Shown here: positions 4,928 to 44,162 of the stretch, one piece after another
Numbering within the stretch: the stretch's first letter is position 1
How the letters are laid out: each line of letters starts with the position of its first letter
Assembly (NCBI GenBank): GCA_020632195.1
Contig: JACKGA010000002.1
Span: forward strand, 2,896-66,895
Reading direction: 5' to 3'
Origin: Candidatus Nomurabacteria bacterium
GTDB lineage: Bacteria; Patescibacteriota; Minisyncoccia; Phycocordibacterales; UBA1006
DNA: 64,000 bases
Notes under the pieces: model-generated
Told to the model about the DNA's origin: nothing
The model's input: the letters and a program-made list of their open reading frames with translations, nothing else
The model's database searches: none
Translations under genes and position numbers: made by a program

Positions 4928-5851
4928 TTATATCTGAATGAGGTCATATGCCAGGTCGACACTGGAAACAATTTTCTCCATATCGGTAAAACGCGATGTA
5001 AATCCTGACTTCATAACAACAACCCCCACCAATACACCAGGTGTCGGTTCTATAATGGCAAGCATATTTCCCCCCGCCAAATTCGTATATCCTGTTTTTA
5101 CAAATCGGGCTCCTGGCAATGTTTCTACCTCCGGATAGGTGTGCTCGAGCATGTGCTGTCTTATTTCATACGTATTTTGTGTTGTGGATTCAGAAATGTT
5201 GGGTGAAGAAAAAAGAAGTTCCATAGCAATAGCGAGAATATCATGTGCAGATCCAGTGGTTGCACGTGCTGGGTCCTGAAAATCGTATCCTGAAGGGTCG
5301 TGCAGCGTAATCCCAAGATCGTGTTCACGAATATATTGCTGCATTGTTTCTACCAAGTCCCCATTTCCATGTCGAGCAAGCGCATCAGCAATATCGTTCG
5401 AGGAACTTACCAATAGCGCACTCAGAGCTTCTGTTACAGAAAAACATTCCCCGTCAGAAAAGCCTTGATCCCCAATAGCTGCAAGCGCCTGAGCATCCAT
5501 ACACACCTCTTGTCCAACAAATAAATCTGCCGATACACGTGCTGTGAGTATTTTTACAAGCGAAGCTAAATTGTAAGGAGTATAAGCATTGCGCTCAAAA
5601 AGAACCTGCTCGTTTTTAAAATCATAAACGTACACACTTGCACCACCGACACCGCTTTGTTGAATAAGTGCCGCCACGAGATCACTACGCAACTGCTGTA
5701 AAGCTTGCTCATGTTGTTCAGTAATGCTGGTGATCTTTTCATTAGCCTCAGCACGGACGCGTCCTTGCTGAGTAGCAGAGACACCCATCACGACGAACAA
5801 AAGTGCACAGCCAACAGCAAGACATATTTTGTATGGTGTCGTATTTTTCAT
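4928..5851 (-). CDS. D-alanyl-D-alanine carboxypeptidase (peptidase S11, PBP5-like)
   Basis: Signal/TM N-terminus, SxxK (ASLVK), SxN-like (SSSND) and KTG (VKTGYT) motifs. Confidence 0.75.
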   Translation of the reverse strand: MKNTTPYKICLAVGCALLFVVMGVSATQQGRVRAEANEKITSITEQHEQALQQLRSDLVAALIQQSGVGGASVYVYDFKNEQVLFERNAYTPYNLASLVKILTARVSADLFVGQEVCMDAQALAAIGDQGFSDGECFSVTEALSALLVSSSNDIADALARHGNGDLVETMQQYIREHDLGITLHDPSGYDFQDPARATTGSAHDILAIAMELLFSSPNISESTTQNTYEIRQHMLEHTYPEVETLPGARFVKTGYTNLAGGNMLAIIEPTPGVLVGVVVMKSGFTSRFTDMEKIVSSVDLAYDLIQI

Positions 5852-5856
5852 AAAAA

Positions 5857-6411
5857 TTATTCTTGAATATCATCTTCGATTCCTTCACGAAGCTCTTCCA
5901 GGCGCGCCATACATGCTTCATATTCTGGTAAGTCTTCGATACGTGAAATACCTAGGAACGTAAACGTATCGTTAGACGCTTGGTACAGTGAACGTCGTTT
6001 ATCATCGGGGTTATCTTTCTTCTCAATCAATCCTCGAACAAGCAAATTACGCAACATGAATTGCGAATTCACGCCACGAATATGATCAATTTCTGTTTTA
6101 AGCAATGGTCCGCTATAAAGGATAATCGCGAGTGTCTCGAGTGCCGCCTTGGAAAGAGGTGTTGTCACTTCACGGGTATAGAGTATTTCGATCAATGTTG
6201 CCATATCGGGATGAGTGGCAAGCATGACATTGTCGTCATGTTCCACAAGAACAATACCCTGCCCTCTCATGTGTTCACGCAGGTCAGCAATACCCGCAAC
6301 AATATCCTGGCGCGGTACCTCGAGTGTCTTGGCAAGCCACGTGATCGAAACGGCGTCGGTACGAACAAATAAAAGACTTTGGATTTGTGCAGCAAGAGAA
6401 AGCGTATTCAT
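5857..6411 (-). CDS. scpB: Segregation and condensation protein B
   Basis: 184 aa with tandem winged-helix-like halves (QIQSLLFV ... TLAIILYSGPL ... IRGVNS). Immediately downstream of scpA. Confidence 0.8.
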   Translation of the reverse strand: MNTLSLAAQIQSLLFVRTDAVSITWLAKTLEVPRQDIVAGIADLREHMRGQGIVLVEHDDNVMLATHPDMATLIEILYTREVTTPLSKAALETLAIILYSGPLLKTEIDHIRGVNSQFMLRNLLVRGLIEKKDNPDDKRRSLYQASNDTFTFLGISRIEDLPEYEACMARLEELREGIEDDIQE

Positions 6412-6420
6412 AGAAAAAAT

Positions 6421-7170
6421 TTACGAAGCGTTAATAATAATATCATCAAAAAGCGTATTTTGCTCGACGGCGATCACACTGTTGCGAACCATTTCCAACA
6501 TCGCAAGAAAACCAACGATAGAATACACTTTTTGTTCGCGAGGGGTTGCGTCTGTCAGTGGAGCTTTTGCAAATTCTTTAAAAGAAATATTCATTGCCTT
6601 CGTCATGCGTTCTTTAAGGTTTTCTACCATGTCATTAATGTGAACACTCGCTGTACGCACGCGTACTTCTGGTAATATCTGTTGTTCTTCCTCGTGGATA
6701 TCATCCAAGCCAAGTATTGCTGATACAAAGTTGCCCGGCTGCATGGCTGCTGCGTCTGGTGAAAACACCGTAATGCGACGCATTTTGAAAGGACGCGTAA
6801 ACATAGACGGTGTGCCAAACAATGGCTTGATCTGCTCTGCCTGATCGCGGAATATCTGGTACAGCTTGAGTCGTCGCTGTAACGCATCGATGCTTTCTTC
6901 TTCCTCATCGGTCAGTTCGAGCGACGGAAGGAGTGAACGTGATTTGATCAAAAGCAACGTCGAAGCAACATACAAAAAATGTGTAATGTAGGAATAGTCG
7001 TGCTGACGATTATTCTTGATATACGCAACATATTCGTCGGTAACTTCTGCCAACGAAACATCATTAATCGGCATTTTGCGATCTTGAATCATGTTCAATA
7101 AGACCTCGATAGGCCCTTCGAATTCCCCGACTGATACCAGTGGGTGTGGCTGTGTGGAAGTGTCTTGCAT
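6421..7170 (-). CDS. scpA: Segregation and condensation protein A
   Basis: FEGPIEVLLNMIQDRKMPINDVSLAEVTDEY is the ScpA N-terminal signature. Start moved to the internal ATG (MQDTST...) at 7170. The track ORF extends to 7254. Confidence 0.8.
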   Translation of the reverse strand: MQDTSTQPHPLVSVGEFEGPIEVLLNMIQDRKMPINDVSLAEVTDEYVAYIKNNRQHDYSYITHFLYVASTLLLIKSRSLLPSLELTDEEEESIDALQRRLKLYQIFRDQAEQIKPLFGTPSMFTRPFKMRRITVFSPDAAAMQPGNFVSAILGLDDIHEEEQQILPEVRVRTASVHINDMVENLKERMTKAMNISFKEFAKAPLTDATPREQKVYSIVGFLAMLEMVRNSVIAVEQNTLFDDIIINAS

Positions 7171-7361
7171 GACAGTATTGTATGCTATAGAGTGAAAGAA
7201 ACCAAATCGAACTAATATGGAAATAATAATTAAAACACGTTTCCAGATGCTCACAGAGCTCGTGGAGGCAAAAAAGATTTCTTGGATCGAGGCAATGTTT
7301 ATGAATCATAATATTCTGATCGACCAATACAAAAAGTTTAAAAATTCTCTTTAAGGATATT

Positions 7362-7387
7362 ACGGGGCTACAGCTAAGTAGTCCCGT
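7362..7387 (+). terminator. 10-bp hairpin (terminator-like) after a 45-codon ORF
   Basis: ACGGGGCTAC agctaa GTAGTCCCGT followed by TTAATGTTT. Follows a small ORF at 7217-7354. Confidence 0.4.
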
Positions 7388-7593
7388 TTAATGTTTAGGC
7401 ATATCTAGAAATTATGTGTTGCTGTGGAAAACTTTTACTTGCAGAGAATTATGGGCGTGTTAGAAAGGAAATATGCAAAAGAGTTATTACAACACATGGT
7501 TCAAGCACATTTGCCGATTTGCCCCGCAATCGAGTGTTTGTCTATGTGTTGGAATATAAGTGTAAAGAATCTCTTTCTTATATCCAAACTATA

Positions 7594-7623
7594 AACAAGC
7601 TCTCGATTCCTCGAGAGCTTGTT
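7594..7623 (+). terminator. Strong 13-bp hairpin, terminator-like
   Basis: AACAAGCTCTCGA ttcc TCGAGAGCTTGTT followed by a T-rich stretch. Lies 90 nt upstream of the 7714 CDS. Confidence 0.55.
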
Positions 7624-36463: not shown

Positions 36464-37060
36464 CTAAAGAGGGATACTTATATCGAGTCCTTGGAGTAGC
36501 CATGTATACAAAATAAGTGTAACTCCAAAAATAAATAATGTAACAATTATTTTATATATTAAACGATGCTTATGGTATTCTTTACGTTCTGAGTGCTTCA
36601 CCACATCGATGAGCTCATCTCCAAAATAAATAGAAAAAAGGGTCCCTATGATAGAAAGTAAGATAATCCCCCAGAAAGGAAATGGTTGAGAGAGAATCTG
36701 GTGGAAGAGTTTAAGAATAACCGTTTTGTTATATATTTCTGGCGTGAAAAAAAATGCATAGAGATTCAACAGAAGAGCCAGAAGAAATGATACTAATTGT
36801 GTATACATCATCTTAATTTTAAATAATAGTCTGATTGGAAAAGCTAAGATGAATCCAGCATCTGCAATAGGAGTAGAAAAGACAAAAAACGACCACGTAA
36901 GGAGCGTAACAAAAAACCCATCTTTGACACCAAACTTCAAGGACATGTAGGCCAGGTAGAAAAGAATGAGGATAACTAAAAAGATAAACTTAAGAAGAGT
37001 TTCCTTCTTTGTTTCGTGTTTGATCCAGGAGTGTCTAGATATGGAAGTCATTTCATTCAT
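36464..37060 (-). CDS. Hypothetical polytopic membrane protein
   Basis: 198 aa with 5-6 predicted TM helices. No family recognised. Confidence 0.55.
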   Translation of the reverse strand: MNEMTSISRHSWIKHETKKETLLKFIFLVILILFYLAYMSLKFGVKDGFFVTLLTWSFFVFSTPIADAGFILAFPIRLLFKIKMMYTQLVSFLLALLLNLYAFFFTPEIYNKTVILKLFHQILSQPFPFWGIILLSIIGTLFSIYFGDELIDVVKHSERKEYHKHRLIYKIIVTLFIFGVTLILYTWLLQGLDISIPL

Positions 37061-37221
37061 AGATAGTAAATAATATTATCAAAATATGCAGCCTATGTGA
37101 ATTCTGTGCTTTATATTTTAAATGAACAAAGAAGTGATGCATTACTATATACAAAAACCACCTCTTTAGTCAGTTTCTATTTTGTATAAGGTATCTGAGT
37201 CTATCCGATACTTTATAGTGT

Positions 37222-37326
37222 TGGCGGAGGGAGTGGGATTCACTGCACCGCATTATTTCAATACTCACTTCGTTCGTGTGAAATATATGCTCCCAGCACC
37301 TTGCTTCTCATCTCGCCAACCTCACA
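37222..37326 (-). pseudogene. Degenerate tRNA-Ser-like remnant (old attachment-site scar?)
   Basis: TTGGCGGAGGGAGTGGGATTC parallels the real tRNA-Ser 3' end TTGGCGGAGAGTAAGGGATTC (43297-43317). ACTTCGTT and GCCAAC(C/T)TC blocks are also shared. No cloverleaf can be folded. Confidence 0.5.
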
Positions 37327-37330
37327 ACAA

Positions 37331-37373
37331 ACTAAAATTTCCCAATACATATAGCATTGGGAAATTTTAGTTT
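37331..37373. repeat. Perfect 16-bp palindromic hairpin
   Basis: ACTAAAATTTCCCAAT ... ATTGGGAAATTTTAGT with a loop of about 11 nt. No flanking U-run on either strand. Confidence 0.7.
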
Positions 37374-37374
37374 G

Positions 37375-37427
37375 TGCGGGCCACGTGAGTTAAGTGCCCA
37401 CACTTCCAAGCACCACAAGGGTTTCTA
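37375..37427. repeat. Junction module copy R1 (53 nt identical to 38688-38740)
   Basis: TGCGGGCCACGTGAGTTAAGTGCCCACACTTCCAAGCACCACAAGGGTTTCTA is identical in both copies. A diverged third copy lies at 38159-38210. Confidence 0.85.
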
Positions 37428-37510
37428 AGCGGTTTTATTCTATCAAAATTAGGGCACGTGGGTCAGGGTGTATAATTTGTTTTACAAATTAAATAATATC
37501 CTTAAGTACA

Positions 37511-38095
37511 TTAATCCTTAAAAGAAATTTGTTTCTCAAATGGCTTTGTTCCATCAACAACAAGGCTTGCTTTGTTTTTTGGGTTATAGTTGTTTAAGTA
37601 GATATCTTCTTCAGCGAGCCATTTTTTCCACAGTATTGTAAGTTCCTCTCTGTCTTTTCCATCACCCACGTCTCTTTCTACTCCACGAATAAGACAAATA
37701 TCTTTTGGCGTATCTACGAAAATATTGAAAGAGATATAATCTTGAAATTCTTTCCGTGAAGAACTTAAGCCTTCTAGTATTATTATATTTGAAACAGGTT
37801 GATTTGTTATCGGCTTGGGGTGATGGTCTTTCCACCAGCTCGTTGGTTGGTAAGAAAGTGATTTTGAGCCATTGATAATTGGTTGGAATATTTTTTCAAT
37901 GATGCTTGGCCACCAATCCAAAGTATTATCCCAGCTGGCAAAATCATCGGTGCGAATAATCTCAGCATTTAATTTTTTTGATAATAGTTTTGCTAATGTA
38001 GATTTACCAGACCCTCCACGTCCATCTATTGCAATAAACTTTACATCTCTAACCTTCGGTTTGGCTGAGGAAATTTTTTCTAAAAGTTTAAACAT
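37511..38095 (-). CDS. P-loop nucleoside/nucleotide kinase-like protein (uridine kinase-like fold)
   Basis: Walker A IAIDGRGGSGKSTLAK, IIILEG, and FVDTPKDICLIRGVERD lid-like segment. Cassette gene 1. Confidence 0.6.
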   Translation of the reverse strand: MFKLLEKISSAKPKVRDVKFIAIDGRGGSGKSTLAKLLSKKLNAEIIRTDDFASWDNTLDWWPSIIEKIFQPIINGSKSLSYQPTSWWKDHHPKPITNQPVSNIIILEGLSSSRKEFQDYISFNIFVDTPKDICLIRGVERDVGDGKDREELTILWKKWLAEEDIYLNNYNPKNKASLVVDGTKPFEKQISFKD

Positions 38096-38140
38096 AAATT
38101 TATTTTAACTTAATTAAAATAAAAAAAGTACTCGGGTCAT

Positions 38141-38210
38141 CCGATACTTTTTTCTTAATGCGGGCCACTCGGGTTAAGTACCCACAACTCCAAACACCAT
38201 AAGGGTTCCT
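38141..38210. repeat. Junction module copy R2
   Basis: CCGATACTTTTTTCTTAA-TGCGG-GCCACTCGGGTTAAGTACCCACAACTCCAAACACCATAAGGGTTCCT. This is a diverged copy of R1/R3 plus the hairpin/T-run shared with R3 and R4. Confidence 0.8.
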
Positions 38211-38255
38211 GGGAAAAGTTTAGACATAAAAAATAAGGTACATGGGTTTAGATTA

Positions 38256-38627
38256 CTATTCAATGTCAACGGAATAGGTACTTCCAAATTCTTTTTGTAA
38301 CATTTTCTGTAATTGATTTCTGGGGATTTGAAGTGGCCCTAATTTTAATGAATAAGAATCACCTATCACAATTTCTTTTTCAAAAAATTTTAAAAAACCA
38401 CCACCTTGATTAGTGAGATCATTCTCGAATCTATCTTCTAATTGTTGTCGTATTTGTAAATGTTCATGAAAAGGCATCGTAGCAAAAAGAAAACCTTTTT
38501 GATTTTTTAGGAGTACATACTTCTGTACCCCACCAAATTTCTTTATATCATCATCTATTTCTATTATTGATCCAACTAAGTTAAGTGGGTTATTTTCTTT
38601 TGTTTCCTTAAAAGGGTTTGATTCCAT
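38256..38627 (-). CDS. Hypothetical protein (cassette gene 2)
   Basis: 123-aa ORF bounded by junction modules. No family recognised. Confidence 0.5.
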   Translation of the reverse strand: MESNPFKETKENNPLNLVGSIIEIDDDIKKFGGVQKYVLLKNQKGFLFATMPFHEHLQIRQQLEDRFENDLTNQGGGFLKFFEKEIVIGDSYSLKLGPLQIPRNQLQKMLQKEFGSTYSVDIE

Positions 38628-38669
38628 ACTTTCATTATAATTTATTTAAATAAATATCTCTAGATCACA

Positions 38670-38740
38670 TCGATACTTTTTTCTTAATGCGGGCCACGTG
38701 AGTTAAGTGCCCACACTTCCAAGCACCACAAGGGTTTCTA
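38670..38740. repeat. Junction module copy R3
   Basis: TCGATACTTTTTTCTTAA-TGCGG-GCCACGTGAGTTAAG... The 53-nt right part is identical to R1. Confidence 0.85.
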
Positions 38741-38781
38741 GAGGTATATTCTGAAATAGGAATAAGGAGTGCGGGTCAACA

Positions 38782-39477
38782 TTATTTATCTAATAGATTT
38801 ACAGATTCAGCAATTTGCTTAATTTCGGGGAAACTATCTGAGTAGCCACTAAATGCAAGTCCACCAAATTTTTCAAAAGGGAGCTTAACTAAAATATCAA
38901 TCAAATGCAGGTCATCCCTACTTCCTGACAGTATCTCATTACAATATCCCGCATCTGACCCTGGTTGTTTATAGAAATCCTCACAAGAAAATGGATTTCG
39001 TTCAACTGCCCAGCTGTCTAGGTTAGCTCTTTCTAGTTGAGAGATGTTAAGAGCTGTTTCAGTTCCGTTCGTACTGTAAGCAACATACTCAGGAACTACA
39101 AAACCATCTGCATCTGAAAAGCCAATAACAAACTTATTAAGATATCCACTTCCTTCGCTATATCGGTAATCTTTTGAAGATGCAAAGAAGTGCATCTCAT
39201 CACTTTTATGGTTAATTAGCTTTCCAATAAAAATCTTCCCCTGGGCTATCTTGTGACCACCTAGACTATCACACGGCATATTTTCTACACAGATTTCAGA
39301 AAAAATTTTGTATTCTTTTGGGTAATAAAAACTAATACCTAGAGTTTCATTACGATACTCTAAAAGATTAGTGTTTCTTTGGATCTCATTGTGTGACAAA
39401 TCTTTTTCACGAGAAGTAAAAATGAACAATACTAACAATAAAGCTATTAATAAAAAGGGTAAGATATATTTTTTCAT
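38782..39477 (-). CDS. Hypothetical secreted protein (cassette gene 3)
   Basis: 231 aa with an N-terminal signal/TM (YILPFLLIALLLVLFIF). No family recognised. Confidence 0.55.
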   Translation of the reverse strand: MKKYILPFLLIALLLVLFIFTSREKDLSHNEIQRNTNLLEYRNETLGISFYYPKEYKIFSEICVENMPCDSLGGHKIAQGKIFIGKLINHKSDEMHFFASSKDYRYSEGSGYLNKFVIGFSDADGFVVPEYVAYSTNGTETALNISQLERANLDSWAVERNPFSCEDFYKQPGSDAGYCNEILSGSRDDLHLIDILVKLPFEKFGGLAFSGYSDSFPEIKQIAESVNLLDK

Positions 39478-39540
39478 ATATTTTAATTATAACACAAAAA
39501 CCACCTTCCTAGGTGGCTTCTGTTTTACAGACTATCTGGG

Positions 39541-39584
39541 TCTATCCGATACTTTTTTCTTACTGCGGAGAGTAAGGGATTCGG
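39541..39584. repeat. Junction module copy R4 carrying a 19-nt tRNA-Ser 3' fragment
   Basis: TCTATCCGATACTTTTTTCTTAC-TGCGG-AGAGTAAGGGATTCG. GCGGAGAGTAAGGGATTCG equals 43300-43318 of the intact tRNA-Ser. The left 80 nt parallels 37151-37220. Confidence 0.8.
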
Positions 39585-39684
39585 TCACCACTGTGGATCC
39601 TCGCTAAAATCTTTCAGATTTTACTGCGGTCTCACAGTCTCGACCCCGATTTTTCTCACCCTATACTCTCTCGCTCGCAAACAA

Positions 39685-39709
39685 AAACAAACGCTATTCG
39701 CGTTTGTTT
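39685..39709 (-). terminator. Probable native terminator of tRNA-Ser, now separated from it by the inserted element
   Basis: AAACAAACGC tattc GCGTTTGTTT. On the minus strand it is followed by UUGUUUG. It lies 8 nt outside the element boundary core at 39718-39721. Confidence 0.5.
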
Positions 39710-39717
39710 TCTAGCTC

Positions 39718-39943
39718 GCGGTGTTTGTTGGACAAAGTTCGAAACTATTTCGAGCAAAATCCAAATGATTAAAACTACTAAAAAGGACTCGGCAGGGCGA
39801 AACAATTTGTCTGGGGTTTCGGATTCGCCCTGCCTCGGCTGATTTCCCGCCCGCAGGAGGGGTCTGGGGAGGAATGCGGGCGGGTTTCGGAACCCTTTTT
39901 CCAAAAACGAATTTTGAATTTTGTTTTTCAAAATGCGTCGCCT
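39718..39943 (-). repeat. Inverted repeat X, left copy (226 bp; partner 41443-41668)
   Basis: The reverse complement matches 41443-41668 with one substitution seen (TTTTTGGAAAAAGGG vs TTTTTGAAAAAAGGG). Confidence 0.9.
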
Positions 39944-39954
39944 AAACCTTAAAA

Positions 39955-40323
39955 CTACAAATTCACTTTATCTTTATCAACCTCTTTCTTAAATTTTACC
40001 CTATCCAAATTTTCCAATTGCCTTTCCGTTAATTTTACATCAATAATTTTTCCGATACCAACTTTTAGCCCAGTAGCATTTAATAATCTAATTAAAGCCA
40101 ATTGATTCATAAGCTGATTTCGCATTTTTTCATTTTGATTTAAAATTTCTGAATTTTCCTCTAACGCTCCCATGGCTTCTTCCATTACCTGTTTATTTTC
40201 ACCTTTAACAACGCTACCGAGTTTAAATGTCCACTTGCCGTCTTGTTGATGAAATAAAACATTTTCCTGCCCAACTAAATCAATAAATTTCCCTGATGCT
40301 TCAAAATATTCCTTGAATCTCAA
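39955..40323 (-). CDS. Hypothetical protein (element cargo; start uncertain, TTG)
   Basis: 122-aa ORF in the same frame as the upstream 98-aa ORF, separated from it by three stop codons. No ATG start. Confidence 0.35.
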   Translation of the reverse strand: MRFKEYFEASGKFIDLVGQENVLFHQQDGKWTFKLGSVVKGENKQVMEEAMGALEENSEILNQNEKMRNQLMNQLALIRLLNATGLKVGIGKIIDVKLTERQLENLDRVKFKKEVDKDKVNL

Positions 40324-40398
40324 TAAAAATTCTCTCGCACAATCTGCAAATTCTTTTTGTCTTTATCCGTTAGCTCAAAAATTGATTTTAATTTTTCG

Positions 40399-40695
40399 TT
40401 AAATTTCAAAAAGTCTTTTTTCATCAAATTCGCCACCACCTAAAAGTGCTTTATTCATTTTGTCATAAGCTTCTCTATTTTCCTCAACAGACGGGTCTTG
40501 CTCAGTATAGCCAGTAATAAAATCTTTTTTGTTCGGGTCTTTAAAAATATCACTCGCTTCCTGTATTGAAATTACACCCTCAATATTTTGCGAAATACCG
40601 TCTTGTTCAACACTTATTTTTGCACCAATACTTTTCACGCAAACAGTGTTCCTGCCCAAAATGTTTGTATAACTGTTCATTTTTACTATTTTCAC
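40399..40695 (-). CDS. Hypothetical protein (element cargo)
   Basis: 98-aa ORF whose ATG overlaps the stop of the upstream frameshifted gene (ATGA). Confidence 0.4.
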   Translation of the reverse strand: MKIVKMNSYTNILGRNTVCVKSIGAKISVEQDGISQNIEGVISIQEASDIFKDPNKKDFITGYTEQDPSVEENREAYDKMNKALLGGGEFDEKRLFEI

Positions 40696-41136
40696 CCCTC
40701 TACATATTCGTCTGCTATTTTTCGCACTTCGGGTGGCAATTCCGCTTGTCCTATACTGCGTGCTTTTTCTAAAGCACCACGATTTAATTTAATAACAAAT
40801 GTTGGTTTTTGGGGATAGATAAAAAACATCATGAGTGCCACCATGTCCGACTCTTTGCAGCTGACTGAAATCAATAAATCCTTCCTTGTTTGGCAATTCA
40901 CTTATAAAGGATTGAATTTTTGTATCTTCACTTTCTATGCCGAGCCGTTCTCTAATCTCCTCAATCTTATTTTGATCATCAATTTTTCTTTGGATAGTTT
41001 CTATTTGCTTTGCGTTATCTGTGCCCACCTCTTGTTGTGACTGACCTGAAACTATTTCGGCTTGCGGTATTTCCGTGGCTTTCTTTTCTTCTTCCGGATT
41101 TTTTGGTTGCATAAATTTTGCTTCAAAATTTTTCAT
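40692..41136 (-). pseudogene. Frameshifted hypothetical gene (two overlapping ORFs joined at a T6 run)
   Basis: ORFs 40789-41136 and 40692-40901 become one reading frame (...VGHGGTHDVF|IYPQKPTFVIKLNRGAL...) if one T is removed from the T6 run (plus-strand A6 at 40821-40826). Confidence 0.5.
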
Positions 41137-41355
41137 AAAAAATATTTCATTAAATCATCAATTGAAACATCTAACCCTTTGGCAATTTTTGCCATAGTTT
41201 CAATAAGTCGGGTTAGGTGTTGCCCCGGACTCAACTTTGATAATCACATTGTAAGCAATATCGGCAAGCTTAGAGAGTTTATCCTGCGAAATACCGAGTT
41301 TTTCTCTGTATTTCTTTATATTCTTTGCAATTGTTGGTAATTCTTTTGACTTCAT
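41133..41355 (-). pseudogene. XRE-family helix-turn-helix regulator, frameshifted
   Basis: MKSKELPTIAKNIKKYREKLGISQDKLSKLADIAYNVIIKVESGATPNPT then a premature TGA (41200-41202). A shift of one base restores IETMAKIAKGLDVSIDDLMKYFL, ending in an ATGA overlap with the next gene. The span is 223 nt, which is 3n+1. Confidence 0.6.
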
Positions 41356-41442
41356 AGTATAATTATACTAGTATAGATAGTGGGATAAGTTTTACTACTA
41401 TAACTTTACCAAATAAAATGAATTTAATCAAACAAAATTTGG

Positions 41443-41784
41443 AGGCGACGCATTTTGAAAAACAAAATTCAAAATTCGTTTTTGAAAAAAGGGTTCCGAA
41501 ACCCGCCCGCATTCCTCCCCAGACCCCTCCTGCGGGCGGGAAATCAGCCGAGGCAGGGCGAATCCGAAACCCCAGACAAATTGTTTCGCCCTGCCGAGTC
41601 CTTTTTAGTAGTTTTAATCATTTGGATTTTGCTCGAAATAGTTTCGAACTTTGTCCAACAAACACCGCCAAAATTGAAAATCGGAATCGGAAGCAAAAAT
41701 GCGGTCGGCGCGAAGCGCCGTCTGTTCTGAATTCCCCCCAAAAAATCCTGAATCTGAAAGGGTTCGCCACGCTCCGCGTGGCTC
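41443..41784 (+). repeat. Central uninterrupted X+Y module (attP-like), 342 bp, immediately upstream of the recombinase ATG
   Basis: 41443-41668 is the inverted copy of 39718-39943. 41665-41784 is the inverted copy of 43184-43303. The two overlap on CCGC at 41665-41668. Confidence 0.9.
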
Positions 41785-41803
41785 CTCGTTTGTCAATACA
41801 ATT

Positions 41804-43327
41804 ATGAATAATCAAACCAAAAAGTTTTTCATATATACTCGCAAGTCAACGGACGACAAAGACAGACAAGTCCGCAGTATTTCTGACCAACTAGCGGAAT
41901 TGAAAAGTTTAGCATTGAAAGAACAACTGGAAGTAGTGGATGTCTTTGTCGAAAAGCAGACCGCCAAAATACCAGGTCGTCCGGTGTTTGGTGAAATGAT
42001 AGAGCGAATGGAGAAAGGCGAAGCGTCTGGTATTTTGGCGTGGCATCCCGATAGACTTGCGAGAAATAGCGTTGATGGTGGAAAAATTATTTATCTTGTT
42101 GATACTGGCGTAATTTCAGAAATGAAATTTCCAACTTTTTGGTTTGATCCGACACCGCAAGGCAAATTCATGCTCTCAATCGCTTTTTCGCAATCCAAGT
42201 ATTATGTAGACAATTTGAGCGAGAATATTAAGCGCGGACATAGGAACAAAGTGAAGGAAGGAATATGGCCTCAAATGGCTCCGCTTGGATATGTGAACAA
42301 AAATAGACGAATTGTGCCTGATGAAAATATCGCACCTTTAATCAAGAAAGCATTTGAGGCATATTCGTCTGGGTCTTTCACTTTGCGCCAACTCCGCGAC
42401 AAATTTAATGTACTTGGATTGAAGCGAAAAAGCGGCAGAGAGCTTGCGGTGTCGAATTATCAAAAACTTCTCAAAAATCCCATTTACACAGGTTTAATGC
42501 TTTACAATGGTGAGATTTTTGAGGGTAAGCACGAACCGATTATTTCAAAGAAACTTTTTGATTCCGTTCAAGAAGTGATGATGAGGAAATCTAAACCAAA
42601 GTCGCGAGGATTGAAACCATTTTTGTATAGAGGATTTTTCCGTTGTGGCGAGTGTGGGTGCTTCATCACCACCGAAACACAAAAAGGTCATAATTATCTC
42701 CGCTGTACCAAACGGAAAAATCCTTGTTCGCAAAAATATACTCGTGAGGAAATCATCACTTCCGAAATTCAAAAGGAAATCAAAAAAGTTTCTTTGCCAG
42801 ACGACTGGGCTTCTTGGATGTTGTCGGAAAATGAAAAAGATAAAATGGTGGAAGCCCAATCGTCTACGCTTTTTGCAGACAAAACAAAAGCCGATATTTC
42901 TCTCTTGAATTCTAAAATTGAGAAGCTGATGAATGCTTATCTCGAAAGTGCTCTCTCGCTAGACGAGTATCGAGATATGAAAAACAAACTTGTGAACGAA
43001 AAACAGCTTCTCAAAGAGAAATTATCGGCTTTTGAGCAAAAAGCGAATAATCGGTTCGAACTTACCGAAAAGTTTTTGAAAGACAATATAGAATTGGCAA
43101 ACGAGGGAATAAATGAAGAGAAACTTCATTTATTCAAAAAAGTCGGTTCGAACTTTCAAATTAAGGATCGAACCGTACTTTTTGAGCCACGCGGAGCGTG
43201 GCGAACCCTTTCAGATTCAGGATTTTTTGGGGGGAATTCAGAACAGACGGCGCTTCGCGCCGACCGCATTTTTGCTTCCGATTCCGATTTTCAATTTTGG
43301 CGGAGAGTAAGGGATTCGAACCCTTGA
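41804..43327 (+). CDS. Large serine recombinase (resolvase/invertase catalytic domain + recombinase domain + zinc-ribbon + coiled coil)
   Basis: FFIYTRKSTDDKDRQVRSISDQ (catalytic Ser context), AWHPDRLARN, GECGCFITTETQKGHNYLRCTKRK zinc ribbon, and a long coiled-coil C-terminus. The ATG at 41804 is chosen. The track ORF start at 41699 lies in the repeat. Confidence 0.88.
   Translation: MNNQTKKFFIYTRKSTDDKDRQVRSISDQLAELKSLALKEQLEVVDVFVEKQTAKIPGRPVFGEMIERMEKGEASGILAWHPDRLARNSVDGGKIIYLVDTGVISEMKFPTFWFDPTPQGKFMLSIAFSQSKYYVDNLSENIKRGHRNKVKEGIWPQMAPLGYVNKNRRIVPDENIAPLIKKAFEAYSSGSFTLRQLRDKFNVLGLKRKSGRELAVSNYQKLLKNPIYTGLMLYNGEIFEGKHEPIISKKLFDSVQEVMMRKSKPKSRGLKPFLYRGFFRCGECGCFITTETQKGHNYLRCTKRKNPCSQKYTREEIITSEIQKEIKKVSLPDDWASWMLSENEKDKMVEAQSSTLFADKTKADISLLNSKIEKLMNAYLESALSLDEYRDMKNKLVNEKQLLKEKLSAFEQKANNRFELTEKFLKDNIELANEGINEEKLHLFKKVGSNFQIKDRTVLFEPRGAWRTLSDSGFFGGNSEQTALRADRIFASDSDFQFWRRVRDSNP
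43184..43303 (-). repeat. Inverted repeat Y, right copy (120 bp; partner 41665-41784)
   Basis: The reverse complement is identical by eye to 41665-41784. It forms the last ~40 codons of the recombinase ORF and ends in the tRNA-Ser CCA/discriminator. Confidence 0.9.
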
Positions 43328-43387
43328 AGCTTTTTACAGCTTACTTCGTTAGCAGTGAAGCGCTTTCGACCACTCAGCCAACTCTCC
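43298..43387 (-). tRNA. tRNA-Ser (GCU), long variable arm, CCA present
   Basis: Minus strand GGAGAGUUGGCUGAGUGGUCGAAAGCGCUUCACUGCUAACGAAGUAAGCUGUAAAAAGCUUCAAGGGUUCGAAUCCCUUACUCUCCGCCA. Acceptor GGAGAGU/ACUCUCC, anticodon loop CUGCUAA. Confidence 0.88.
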
Positions 43388-43415
43388 GATGCAATGGAGC
43401 ATACTATAAAAATTC

Positions 43416-44162
43416 TTATTTTTCCAGGGGGAGCTGAATAGTAATGGTTGTTCCTTCTTTTGAGGTACTGGTAAAGGCAACTACCCCTTGGTGATCCTCG
43501 ACAATCTTCCTTACTGTAAAAAGACCCATTCCCGTACCAGGGGTTTGTGATGTCCGCGCAAGAGATCCGCGGGTATATTTTTCAAAAATAATCTCATGGT
43601 CGCCAGGACCCAGGGTAGTACCAGGATTATGTACTCGTACGACGATATATTTGTCTGTAAGTTCAAGAGCAACACTAATCATCTCTCCTTCGGGAGTATA
43701 TTTGATGGCATTTTCAATCATATGCTCCAAGACAATGGTCATTTTATTTTTATCTATCCTGATATGAGGCACTGTGCTTTTGGGGCGTTGAAATTTGATA
43801 GTCAAATTGCGTGCACGAGCCGCTGATAAAAATTGAGTCATCGTCTCTTCGATAAGCTCTTCTACATCACTCTCTTCAAAAGTATATTGAAACGTCCACA
43901 CTTGAGCTTTATTGGCACGAGAGAGTTCTTCGAGCAGGTCAACCATACGCTCATTACTCCGATACCCTTCACGCAAGATATGAAGCTGTTCTTCAGAAAA
44001 ATGTGCTAGGTCGCCATCGAGCAACATTTTGAGAGTCCACTTGGTGCCTGATAGTGGCGTGCGCAATTCGTGCACAATCATCGAGATAAACTCTTGCTGC
44101 TGCTTTTGGGCTTCTTCCAATTCTTTGAGCTGACTTTGTGTTGAGCGGTTATGATTCGTCAT
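43416..44162 (-). CDS. Cytoplasmic sensor histidine kinase (HisKA + HATPase_c only)
   Basis: H-box FISMIVHELRTPLSG, N-box IENAIKYT, G-boxes GTGMGL. No TM or sensor domain. Start set at the ATG at 44162. Confidence 0.8.
   Translation of the reverse strand: MTNHNRSTQSQLKELEEAQKQQQEFISMIVHELRTPLSGTKWTLKMLLDGDLAHFSEEQLHILREGYRSNERMVDLLEELSRANKAQVWTFQYTFEESDVEELIEETMTQFLSAARARNLTIKFQRPKSTVPHIRIDKNKMTIVLEHMIENAIKYTPEGEMISVALELTDKYIVVRVHNPGTTLGPGDHEIIFEKYTRGSLARTSQTPGTGMGLFTVRKIVEDHQGVVAFTSTSKEGTTITIQLPLEK

Follow-up and report, generated by a model that had tools for sequence, protein, structure and literature searches.

Large serine integrases such as those of A118/LI, Bxb1, phiC31 and TP901-1 combine Resolvase, Recombinase and zinc-ribbon domains, integrate site-specifically at a short common core, have a small HTH gene adjoining them and use a donor half-site whose motif lies 5 bp farther from the crossover (PMC3783163). 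The same features are found in a 3.6-kb insertion at the 3' end of a tRNA-Ser gene (39718-43303) in the window, the whole 64,000-nucleotide stretch of Candidatus Nomurabacteria DNA analysed here. In contrast to those systems, however, this element has a complete attP-like joint in its middle, inverted relative to both ends; its half-sites lie at the ends of near-identical inverted repeats of 120 bp and ~200 bp; its recombinase ORF passes through one repeat into the tRNA; and a covarying hairpin cassette sits beside the P arm. To our knowledge, an internal attP joint, paired repeats, an ORF running into the tRNA and a hairpin cassette are all absent from described serine-integrase sites.

The insertion is organized as X'-cargo-X followed directly by Y-large serine recombinase (LSR)-Y', and a common 4-bp core, CCGC/GCGG, occurs at all three junctions, that is, at both ends and, inverted, at the internal X-Y joint (Table 1). 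X and X' form an inverted-repeat pair matching at 225 of 226 bases, the sole mismatch being 41485 (A) versus 39901, which bears out the initial annotation in its statement that the module is present twice. Inverted repeats on two tiers make up the conserved architecture of this small tRNA-Ser-targeting element of Patescibacteria, and X is one of their arms. The LSR matches PF00239 (6e-19), PF07508 (5e-14) and PF13408 (4e-7) as well as PHROG 95 'integrase' (1e-79), and its final ~47 codons lie inside Y'; these domains and the tRNA-Ser junction agree with the earlier placement of the module in a tRNA-Ser-integrating serine-recombinase element. An exact-protein look-up of the recombinase returned no record, and no convincing promoter was found for its gene. 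The cargo ORFs are pieces of a 392-aa protein that is whole at a related locus and therefore represent a pseudogene, and the HTH protein, which has 51 aa here and 64-70 aa elsewhere, is therefore probably truncated. When the cargo ORFs and a 91-aa ORF that spans X were compared with Pfam and PHROGs, the HTH was the single match. Just outside X', a displaced hairpin is probably what once terminated the tRNA-Ser gene, from which 3.6 kb now separate it. In other loci the sequence beyond X' is variable host DNA that often includes an equivalent terminator hairpin, which fits an old tRNA trailer.

Table 1. Features of the element and its surroundings (window coordinates).
Feature	Position	Strand	Basis or remark
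Displaced hairpin CAAACGC-TATTC-GCGTTTG, T-runs on both strands	39688-39714		Direct sequence reading
X' (outer arm, cargo-side inverted repeat)	39718-39943	-	Reverse complement of X, repeat comparison
Left junction core GCGG	39718-39721		Within X'
Hairpin 2 copy in X'	~39791-39834		Covariance model R1 matches 39788-39837, - strand, 68.6 bits
Hairpin 1 copy in X'	~39846-39884		Within 39718-39943
Variable cargo, three or four ORF fragments	39955-41136	-	392-aa protein intact in L027
Small XRE-type HTH gene, 51 aa	41200-41355	-	Adjoins inner X; divergent from recombinase
X (inner arm, cargo-side inverted repeat; module under study)	41443-41668	+	Repeat comparison
H0, AT-rich hairpin GCATTTTG-AAAAA-CAAAAT	41450-41470 (about)	+	Folding and homologue comparison
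T-arm-like GGGTTCCGAAACCC	41491-41504		Sequence present
Hairpin 1 stem, CCCGCCCGCA / TGCGGGCGGG	41502-41511 / 41531-41540	+	10-bp GC stem, 19-nt loop TTCCTCCCCAGACCCCTCC
Loop word CCCCAGAC, common to both hairpins	41517-41524 and 41570-41577
Hairpin 2 stem, GGCAGGGCGAA / TTCGCCCTGCC	41552-41562 / 41585-41595	+	11-bp stem, 22-nt loop
X-end, ~53 nt conserved, ending in ATTCGAACTTYGTYCAAYAMACA then CCGC	41616-41668	+	Putative attP-type (P-arm) half-site
TCGAAAtagTTTCGA	41633-41647		Inside X-end
TTCGAAC	41643-41649		Sub-feature of X-end
Core CCGC	41665-41668		Sub-feature of X-end
Y (inner arm, recombinase-side inverted repeat)	41665-41784	+	120/120 bases identical to Y'
Terminator-like hairpin in Y, CGGCGCGAAGCGCCG + TCTGTTCTG	41706-41720
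Large serine recombinase (LSR), 507 aa	41804-43327	+	Domains Resolvase, Recombinase, Zn_ribbon_recom
Y' (outer arm, recombinase-side inverted repeat, 120 bp)	43184-43303	-	Repeat comparison
tRNA-Ser(GCT), integration target	43298-43387	-	3' end, ...CTCTCCGCCA, completed by element
Right junction core GCGG	43300-43303		In Y', overlapping tRNA-Ser 3' end

The 3' ~50 nt of X probably form an attP-type half-site that mimics the T-arm/acceptor end of tRNA-Ser. Across loci, TTCGAA lies 22 nt from CCGC in the X-end and 17 nt from it in tRNA-Ser; in serine integrase systems, the zinc-ribbon-domain motif is 5 bp nearer the centre in attB than in attP (Rutherford et al. 2013, PMC3783163). The X-end thus has serine-integrase attP geometry, which suggests that X-Y is an intact attP kept inside the integrated element, with the LSR as the predicted catalyst of attP x attB recombination. 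The motif shift is clear on the X/tRNA side only, and no consistent motif could be assigned to the Y-side half-site across loci. Four loci carry a tRNA-Ser in place of the X-end beside Y, as expected if X-Y recombines with other tRNA-Ser genes; we found no X-ends joined directly to a tRNA, the sign of solo cargo cassettes. The element has the three-domain recombinase, the specific target with an identical short core at both junctions and the shifted half-site of LSR elements. Such elements should keep only hybrid attL and attR, with neither an attP nor long terminal inverted repeats, whereas here the internal X-Y joint and the 226-bp and 120-bp repeats are retained; it is therefore a variant rather than a textbook LSR element.

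This architecture recurs widely. X'/X pairs of 189-273 nt, 1.5-5.4 kb apart, occur at at least 20 other loci in Patescibacteria genomes, including the chromosome-level OZ246398.1 and OY969413.1. In ~78 of 80 genome loci the LSR gene lies between Y and Y', and in ~65 of the 80 Y' abuts the 3' end of a tRNA-Ser gene, whatever its anticodon. Of the cargo genes, only that for the HTH protein is conserved (42 of 56 loci). Both unique segments occur in either orientation among related loci: the HTH end of the cargo lies at the inner X in L002 but at the outer X' in L037, and the orientation of the LSR gene with respect to X is reversed in L187, L114 and L086. The arms are 95-100% identical within loci and differ by 70-90% between them, and LSRs 89-93% identical to that of the window, with the same tRNA-Ser target, are accompanied by inner X cassettes of three kinds (classes 1, 2 and 3). 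A protein search of a word-filtered candidate set returned more than 7,500 recombinase-related proteins at E<=1e-20; among the best-matching relatives, proteins of 84-95% identity come from genomes labelled as many different Patescibacteria lineages. A viral collection yielded no close relative, only matches of 25-26% identity. Many related contigs end at the repeats, within a few hundred bases of the recombinase gene. Look-ups of two neighbouring host genes yielded nothing beyond short Logan contigs, which stop ~30 nt into X' or shortly before the tRNA, and no empty tRNA-Ser site (expected form ...CTCTCCGC followed directly by the terminator) was recovered among them. The near-perfect inverted repeats are a plausible explanation for these breaks in Patescibacteria assemblies.

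X itself has two parts, the 3' ~50 nt half-site and an inner tandem-hairpin cassette of ~120-170 nt comprising H0, hairpin 1 and hairpin 2. The initial annotation had described a GC-rich, hairpin-dense island in an AT-rich locus, holding far more than an att half-site needs, and this description stands. GC content is 0.46-0.49 in X and 0.26-0.38 in the cargo alongside, folding-energy z-scores for X are -3.9 (+ strand) and -3.0 (- strand), both hairpins can be read in the sequence where they had been placed, their loops do share the 8-mer, and the reported TCGAAA/TTTCGA tag is present. The loop of hairpin 1 holds a 17-nt mirror repeat, and that of hairpin 2 has the consensus (A)TCC-WWWW-CCCCAGA-MAAAT-WGT. 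Other matches to CCCCAGAM in the window lie in coding sequence and none within hairpins; the hairpin 2 model (R1) matches only X and X' in the window. Two further proposals fared less well. An AT-rich trio said to form alternative hairpins is present, and its H0 hairpin recurs in part of the homologues with other complementary stems (GCATTTTGC/GCAAAATGC, GCCAGT/ACTGGC), but the remainder is unconserved. The supposed T-arm mimic is a local accident, being replaced by AGTCCGAAA, GTTCAAAAA and similar sequences in homologues. Rfam 15 gave no family match in X at the gathering threshold, nor any at E up to 5 over 37000-43500. We also found no description of this element or hairpin motif when searching the literature.

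Hairpins 1 and 2 are a real, widely conserved folded motif. Comparison of more than 100 distinct metagenomic copies, among the matches listed, strongly supports both hairpins and bears out the idea that the module has genuinely selected secondary structure. For hairpin 1 (46 distinct homologues among the matches listed), 90.7% of cells are paired and all 11 of 11 pairs have changed on both sides, and none of 500 shuffles does as well. For hairpin 2 (65 distinct homologues among the matches listed), 92.6% are paired and 9 of 12 pairs have changed on both sides. In none of 500 shuffles does the share of paired cells, the number of cells with double changes or the covariation score come up to the value observed for hairpin 2, although 15 of the 500 equal its count of pairs changed on both sides and its further pair types are no higher than in shuffles; sliding the stem positions as a control brings pairing down to 34-58%. 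Hairpin 1 stems exist in several clearly different complementary versions (for example, CCCGCCCGCA, CCCGCGCGGA, AAGCGGAGGA and CAGGGCGACA), and hairpin 2 has ~30 different complementary stem sequences. While the stems vary yet remain complementary, the C-rich loops of 19-22 nt (TCC...CCCCAGA) are kept, and the loop words are the most conserved portion of the cassette. The single-stranded linkers AGTCCGAAA, AAATCAGCCGAG and GAGTCC are also conserved in homologues. Loop 1 occurs in at least 120 metagenome contigs, many of which carry it as inverted pairs.

The pairs themselves bear on which strand folds. Across hairpins 1 and 2 we counted 2453 Watson-Crick, 12 G-U and 24 A-C pairs; this test for a folded strand thus showed no asymmetry and no excess of G-U over A-C, and stems that are near-purely Watson-Crick on both strands are as expected if both senses must fold. 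Additionally, the apex hairpin of class-2 and class-3 X modules occurs in both orientations relative to the X-end, which argues against a one-sense, sequence-specific RNA. As regards a selected fold, the earlier suggestion of a structured RNA holds, and X may encode such an RNA, but an excess of G-U pairs is lacking and the apex hairpin is flipped in sister elements. A DNA platform for a directionality factor, also suggested at the outset, is a further candidate role.

Our preferred reading, which we put forward tentatively, is that the cassette may act in cis as a folded boundary signal, terminating or insulating transcription, and may in addition bind some factor. If the element were excised through its two end sites, topology dictates that it would form a circle resembling the 2-micron plasmid, in which X+Y is present as two inverted 342-bp repeats. 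Owing to the inverted orientation of the arms, transcripts leaving the cargo all read the cassette in one sense and those entering it read the other. In the entering sense, a short U tract would follow hairpin 1, which, like the terminator-like hairpin of Y, could keep read-through, such as that starting at the tRNA-Ser promoter, from reaching the recombinase gene and the HTH/cargo operon; a putative factor would bind to the conserved loops as well. Terminator-like hairpins were called by a scan in both Y and Y', as was GGGTTTCGGAACCC+T6 on the - (entering) strand of X. The 8 nt 5' of hairpin 1 hold a mean of 3.6 A (at least 4 A in 55 of 113 copies) and the 8 nt 3' of it a mean of 1.1 T; this A-rich tract is, on the opposite strand, a short T/U tract after the stem, with 3-5 T in about half of the homologue copies. 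Some observations point the other way. Most homologues lack a canonical U tract, having TTTCGG or TTCGGC rather than T5-8 behind the hairpin 1 stem on the opposite strand, and in place of Ts it is the conserved GAGTCC that follows hairpin 2. An intrinsic terminator consists of a GC-rich stem, a short loop of 3-8 nt and a U tract directly after; hairpins 1 and 2 have loops that exceed this length and were not called by the scan. Loops of 19-22 nt are atypical of terminators, and termination alone leaves their conservation unexplained.

The main rival is that the cassette acts as folded DNA, either single-stranded at replication forks, on entry or during transfer, or extruded from a small supercoiled circle, and serves the element's recombination or replication, for example as accessory or synapsis sites, as priming signals or as a promoter of arm-to-arm conversion and inversion. 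We regard this as somewhat unlikely, although much fits it: the absence of a strand preference in the stems, the two orientations of the apex hairpin in sister elements, the constant position of the cassette within an inverted repeat and beside an att half-site, and the similarity of arms within loci combined with their divergence between loci, which implies that the arms often exchange sequence. Loop 1, like the class-2 apex, is also a C-rich mirror repeat, and some variants have a G-quadruplex-like loop. However, cruciform extrusion from duplex would be costly with loops of 19-22 nt, serine recombinases work on duplex sites, and the conserved core consists of the HTH protein and the LSR only, with no Rep, relaxase or HUH gene and no single-stranded stage. 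The asymmetry of A and T tracts at hairpin 1 also reads more easily as a transcription signal. Conserved loops and linkers between variable stems would also suit tandem stem-loops of a small regulatory RNA, or of a sense/antisense kissing-loop pair like ColE1 RNA I/II or CopA/CopT, that controls the recombinase, the HTH/cargo operon or how many copies there are of the excised circle. Covariation restricted to Watson-Crick pairs fits RNAs made from both strands, and inverted arms would yield complementary RNAs automatically from same-direction transcripts. We nonetheless consider an RNA of this kind distinctly unlikely. A promoter-like TTTACT-17-TAAAAT lies just upstream of X (41391-41419), but this AT-rich region has no more of such matches than chance would give (8 found versus 9.0 expected) and no conserved promoter was identified; target complementarity is absent by eye, and near-identical recombinases and HTH contexts come with different cassettes. 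Shine-Dalgarno sequences are almost absent from the host (2 of 53 ORFs), which makes pairing with them moot and led us to abandon an anti-Shine-Dalgarno role for the CCUCC loops.

A structured non-coding region directly upstream of a recombinase and at an att site, with loops that stay conserved although the recombinases of the elements share only 27-97% identity with that of the window, also invites comparison with guide or bridge RNAs, and an RNA-guided recombinase had been raised speculatively at the outset. That X encodes such an RNA, or an RNA cofactor for target or donor recognition, is highly improbable. Unrelated inner cassettes of classes 1, 2 and 3 accompany the LSRs of 89-93% identity that share the tRNA-Ser target, the hairpin 2 model was found in only 20 of 80 related LSR loci, and the loops have no complementarity by eye to the tRNA-Ser 3' end, the X-end or the start of Y. 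Moreover, target and donor carry the protein-read attB/attP motif shift typical of LSRs, and a terminator-like hairpin separates X from the recombinase gene. A bolder proposal, which we see as a long shot, is a new class of serine-recombinase element with a live internal attP and 2-micron-like excision, in which the cassette would be a landing pad of folded RNA or single-stranded DNA. The recombinase, its HTH partner or a host factor would read the pad through its TCC...CCCCAGA loops, and the pad would decide among the three att-type joints and hence among integration, inversion and excision. If true, this would be the first case of a serine recombinase with a structured nucleic-acid cofactor. 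Near-perfect inverted repeats are classic for chimeric assemblies, many related contigs break at them, and a 91-aa ORF crosses X, so that the duplication might be an assembly or amplification artefact (a chimeric inverted duplication) and the hairpins chance palindromes or part of a coding ORF. These ideas are refuted and carry a negligible probability: the two copies differ by one base, the layout recurs with different sequences in at least 20 independent genomes, chromosome-level ones among them, and in many metagenomes, the covariation statistics exclude chance, loop-length changes that are not multiples of three combined with compensatory stem changes exclude coding, and Pfam gives no match.

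The boundary-signal reading and the element that carries it have several broader implications. First, we know of few mobile elements in Patescibacteria, and the abundance and lineage spread of this recombinase family point to a main vehicle of gene flow there. Second, the layout, with its two repeat brackets, retained internal attP and built-in target mimic, is unlike that of described serine integrase elements and predicts chromosome inversions from one tRNA-Ser gene to another as well as a flip-flopping excised circle. Third, the hairpin cassette is well suited to experiment, being abundant, with unambiguous covariation and conserved loops that some factor must read. Finally, serine integrases are genome-engineering tools, and a natural accessory structure able to modulate them, or a family with a well-defined tRNA-Ser attB/attP pair, would be of practical interest.

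Comparisons beyond the serine integrases help to place the element. As in the yeast 2-micron plasmid (Flp/FRT, 599-bp inverted repeats), two unique segments are split by near-identical repeats that hold recombination sites and, as in the flip-flop of 2-micron and plastid inverted repeats, both orientations of the unique segments are seen. The enzyme here, however, is a serine rather than a tyrosine recombinase, the host is bacterial, no replication function was identified, and the element is seen integrated, with a circular form that is only deduced. The invertible segments of phage P1 (C segment/Cin), Mu (G/Gin) and Hin likewise place a recombinase gene beside a segment bracketed by inverted repeats, ~0.6 kb long in the P1 C segment, with crossover sites at the repeat ends. 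They differ in using small invertases rather than a large integrase-type recombinase, and no Fis-type enhancer is known here; in the present element repeats also bracket the recombinase gene itself, the unit as a whole is mobile and targets a tRNA gene, and the cargo consists of defence-type or unknown genes rather than tail fibres. Integron attC sites and the folded attP of CTX phage also conserve structure while leaving stem sequences free to vary. Those, though, are themselves recombination sites, folded single strands for tyrosine recombinases, whereas here the crossover lies ~70-160 nt away, at CCGC, the loops rather than extrahelical bases are conserved, and no single-stranded stage is known. 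The bridge (seek) RNAs of IS110/IS1111 likewise correspond to structured non-coding sequence that lies at the element end and precedes the recombinase gene, but belong with another enzyme family; in our element the loops are without target or donor complementarity by eye and the cassette is exchangeable among near-identical recombinases. Finally, intrinsic terminators and REP-type palindromes are, like the cassette, GC-rich palindromes at operon or element boundaries, and hairpin 1 with its A tract on one side and the small hairpin with T6 that matched the scan resemble the former. The cassette departs from both in its conserved loops of 19-22 nt, its weak or absent U tracts in most copies and its tandem arrangement with conserved linkers.

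A repeat search of the window placed two inverted-repeat pairs side by side: a cargo-side pair (outer arm X', inner arm X) around 1,499 bp of cargo, and a recombinase-side pair (inner Y, outer Y') bracketing a gene for a large serine recombinase. In the arm comparison, X and X' differ at a single base (41485 versus 39901) and Y and Y' at none. The recombinase ORF has its final ~47 codons within Y' and then runs into the tRNA-Ser(GCT) gene. GCGG forms both the start of X' (39718) and the end of Y' (43300-43303), and X and Y overlap by 4 bp, at 41665-41668, in its complement CCGC. A displaced hairpin with T-runs just outside X', together with the locus-specific flanks seen beyond X' in related loci, indicates that the whole of 39718-43303 is one insertion, which would have separated tRNA-Ser from its former trailer. 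An initial annotation had described X as a GC-rich, hairpin-dense island present twice, and every feature it listed was found in place. The region is richer in GC than its surroundings, recurs as X' with a single base changed and folds better than shuffled sequence on both strands (z = −3.9 and −3.0).

Features of the element and types of inner X module
Feature	Coordinates	Length	Description
Displaced hairpin CAAACGC-TATTC-GCGTTTG with T-runs	39688-39714		sequence read directly
X'	39718-39943	226 nt	inverted-repeat partner of X
X	41443-41668	226 nt	inverted-repeat partner of X'
H0	~41450-41470		hairpin of the X cassette, present in window
Hairpin 1	41502-41540		cassette, within X
Hairpin 2	41552-41595		cassette, within X
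Y	41665-41784	120 nt	inverted-repeat partner of Y'
Y'	43184-43303	120 nt	inverted-repeat partner of Y
Recombinase ORF	41804-43327	507 aa	Resolvase, Recombinase and zinc-ribbon domains
tRNA-Ser(GCT)	43298-43387		strand opposite to recombinase ORF
Class 1 X module			window's type
Class 2 X module			long AT-rich stem, CTCCCCCCACACCCCCCG apex
Class 3 X module			class-2 hairpin turned round

This architecture recurs widely, which rules out an artefact. A protein search returned more than 7,500 relatives of the recombinase at E ≤ 1e-20, the best of them (84-95% identity) labelled as many Patescibacteria lineages. Among 80 genome loci chosen by recombinase protein alone, ~78 carry Y upstream of the recombinase gene and an inverted Y' over its 3' end, and in ~65 the 3' end of a tRNA-Ser gene, whatever its anticodon, lies directly against Y'. 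Where upstream DNA suffices, at least 20 loci, two chromosome-level assemblies included, show an X'/X pair of 189-273 nt around cargo of 1.5-5.4 kb; the flank beyond X' differs from locus to locus and often holds a terminator hairpin. Arm identity inside one locus is usually 97-100%, and Y identity between loci only 71-100%. Among element genes, conservation is limited to the recombinase gene and one for a small HTH protein of the XRE type; this HTH gene adjoins inner X, divergent from the recombinase, in 42 of 56 loci. The remaining cargo varies (a DUF262-like gene, methylase or helicase) and in the window is a frameshifted copy, in three or four pieces, of a 392-aa protein that is intact in locus L027. 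The window copy (39955-41355) is decaying, with an HTH ORF of 51 aa versus 64-70 aa in homologues; its recombinase ORF and repeats are still intact.

In two loci (L019, 7632-10994; L044, 907-8279) further elements with this architecture, a second and a third, follow the first directly in tandem, with additional X-type and Y-type repeat pairs, which suggests serial accretion at one site. Beside the window's tRNA-Ser, 37100-39700 holds three single-gene units on the minus strand (37511-38095, 38256-38627 and 38782-39477), a repeated ~70-110-nt element between them (37358-37426, 38142-38210 and 38671-38739; 74-87% identical) and two degenerate look-alikes of the tRNA-Ser 3' end (37221-37241 and 39560-39582). 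The stretch has the look of either a cassette array or a trail left by older insertions. Beside the first copy of the repeated element lies an inverted repeat (ACAAACTAAAATTTCCCAAT / ATTGGGAAATTTTAGTTTGT, 37327-37375) whose 20-nt arms match perfectly across a 9-nt spacer.

The two hairpins of X proved to be real structure, as the initial annotation had proposed. When metagenomes were scanned for the 19-nt loop of hairpin 1, at least 120 contigs carried it, and among the matches listed many contigs carry two inverted copies 1.6-8 kb apart. The 127 distinct copies among these matches have complementary hairpin-1 stems of several clearly different sequences (CCCGCCCGCA, CCCGCGCGGA, AAGCGGAGGA, CAGGGCGACA and others). 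In the 46 distinct homologues scored, hairpin 1 has 90.7% of positions paired and double changes in 11 of 11 pairs, and none of 500 shuffles did as well. A second hairpin follows downstream in 109 of the 127 copies, built from ~30 different complementary stems around a conserved loop, (A)TCC-WWWW-CCCCAGA-MAAAT-WGT, that played no part in the query. Scored in 65 distinct homologues, hairpin 2 is 92.6% paired, with double changes in 9 of 12 pairs and a covariation of 0.50 versus 0.13; no shuffle of 500 reached its observed pairing, double-change cells or covariation score, and slid controls fell to 34-58% paired. Within the 64-kb window its covariance model had no matches besides X and X'; in the protein-selected set it matched 20 of 80 loci, every time at the X position. 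Conservation extends to the linkers AGTCCGAAA, AAATCAGCCGAG and GAGTCC; GGGTTCCGAAACCC, which had been taken for a T-arm mimic, is not conserved in homologues. On either strand, stem pairing is Watson-Crick with few exceptions (2453 Watson-Crick pairs, 12 G-U and 24 A-C). No Rfam family matched X, and a 91-aa ORF across it has no Pfam match; loop-length changes and compensatory stem changes rule out a coding role.

Longer X variants have two extra hairpins upstream: H0 and one with a G-quadruplex-like loop. The latter, GTTGCCC-GCGAATGGGTTGGGTGGGTCAA-GGGCAAC, lies ~100-200 nt upstream of hairpin 1 (L018, L081, L082, L103, L137, L152, L156 and L176); its loop has four G3 tracts and, by eye, could pair with loop 1 (GACCCCUCC) at 8 of 9 positions. 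In loop 1, CCTCCCCAGACCCCTCC (41514-41530) is a perfect 17-nt mirror repeat, as is the class-2 apex CCCCCCACACCCCCC (L006, L012 and L015), and such repeats could point to a potential for triplex, i-motif or G-quadruplex formation.

The suggestion that X might guide the recombinase did not survive comparison. Three different inner X modules (see table) accompany recombinases that are 89-93% identical to the window's and all sit at tRNA-Ser, and such near-identical enzymes with different cassettes rule out a guide or obligatory cofactor. By eye, the loops showed no complementarity to the tRNA-Ser 3' end, the X-end or the start of Y. Since the class-1 cassette also accompanies recombinases only 27-97% identical to the window's, and in one family lies within a Y-type repeat, it is an accessory of the repeat arms that can be exchanged. 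The CCUCC words of loop 1 are not anti-Shine-Dalgarno decoys, as only 2 of 53 window ORFs of at least 150 aa have a Shine-Dalgarno sequence; a TATAAT box 6-10 nt ahead of the ATG is common among window ORFs, suggesting that host mRNAs are mostly leaderless.

Recombination geometry is carried by the final ~53 nt of X, kept in all X classes and ending in ...GGATTTTGYYCGAAATAMWTTCGAACTTYGTYCAAYAMACA and then CCGC. The TCGAAAtagTTTCGA that the initial annotation had singled out is present and forms part of this conserved att arm. The tRNA-Ser 3' end reads ...GGTTCGAATCYCTTACYCT and then CCGC; both contain TTCGAA, 22 nt from CCGC in X versus 17 nt in the tRNA. In serine integrases, the zinc-ribbon-domain motif of attB lies 5 bp nearer the crossover than that of attP (PMC3783163). 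Counted from a crossover inside CCGC, TTCGAAC spans positions ~18-24 of X, where that study has 16-24, and ~13-19 of the tRNA, where it has 11-19; the agreement is close. We therefore read the X-end as a probable P-type arm and the tRNA end as B-type, the X/Y junction as a putative intact attP and the two outer ends as likely hybrid sites. In four loci (L029, L030, L051 and L077; ~5778-7600 each) a second tRNA-Ser stands in place of the X-end, so that Y-recombinase-Y' lies between two facing tRNA-Ser genes; this is the product expected if the internal attP recombined with a second tRNA-Ser, inverting the chromosome. The Y arms of these four loci share only 79-96% identity. The element's end sites lie in direct orientation, and recombination between them would release a circle joining Y' to X', with two inverted 342-bp repeats and an attP in each, the arrangement of the yeast 2-micron plasmid. 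The circle itself was not found. HTH-proximal cargo lies beside inner X in L002 and, inverted, beside outer X' in L037, and L187, L114 and L086 have the recombinase gene in the opposite orientation relative to X, in keeping with a flip-flop of segments.

What the cassette does is far less certain than its anatomy. Because the arms are inverted, X would be read in one sense by transcripts leaving the cargo segment and as the complement by those entering. The Y hairpin (CGGCGCGAAGCGCCG+TCTGTTCTG) is clearly terminator-like and faces transcripts entering the recombinase segment, which would include read-through from tRNA-Ser, whose own terminator is displaced. A terminator scan called GGGTTTCGGAACCC+T6 on the entering strand of X. 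In homologues an A-rich tract precedes hairpin 1 (mean 3.6 A per 8 nt; at least 4 A in 55 of 113) and hardly any T follows it (mean 1.1), so a short U tract lies 3' of the stem only in the entering sense. Together these signals suggest that the entering sense matters, and Watson-Crick-only stems would fit a structure needing to fold in both. We therefore favour, at somewhat under even odds, a cis-acting boundary element, its loops recognised by a putative factor, that would limit read-through towards the att site and into the cargo/HTH operon. The absence of a canonical U tract from most copies counts against this reading, which also leaves unaccounted for the fact that conservation is highest in the 19-22-nt loops.

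The same facts fit equally well the main rival, a role at the DNA level in which hairpins, arising on single-stranded DNA or within a small supercoiled circle, would serve recombination, arm conversion or replication. Watson-Crick-only stems, C-rich mirror-repeat loops, the flipped hairpin orientation between classes 2 and 3 and the constant placement of the cassette inside arms kept identical would all suit such a role, but the loops are large, genes for a single-stranded stage are absent and the A/T tracts are asymmetric, all of which speaks against it. A trans-acting or antisense RNA from X is a third possibility.

We found no description of the element or its cassette in the literature searched, nor an Rfam match, and both should interest those studying mobile elements, structured nucleic acids and Patescibacteria. 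By its recombinase and the geometry of its X and tRNA sites, the element is best placed as a serine-integrase element. It departs from the textbook form in that attP appears to persist in the integrated copy; further additions are a hairpin cassette that covaries and inverted repeats that are long and homogenised.
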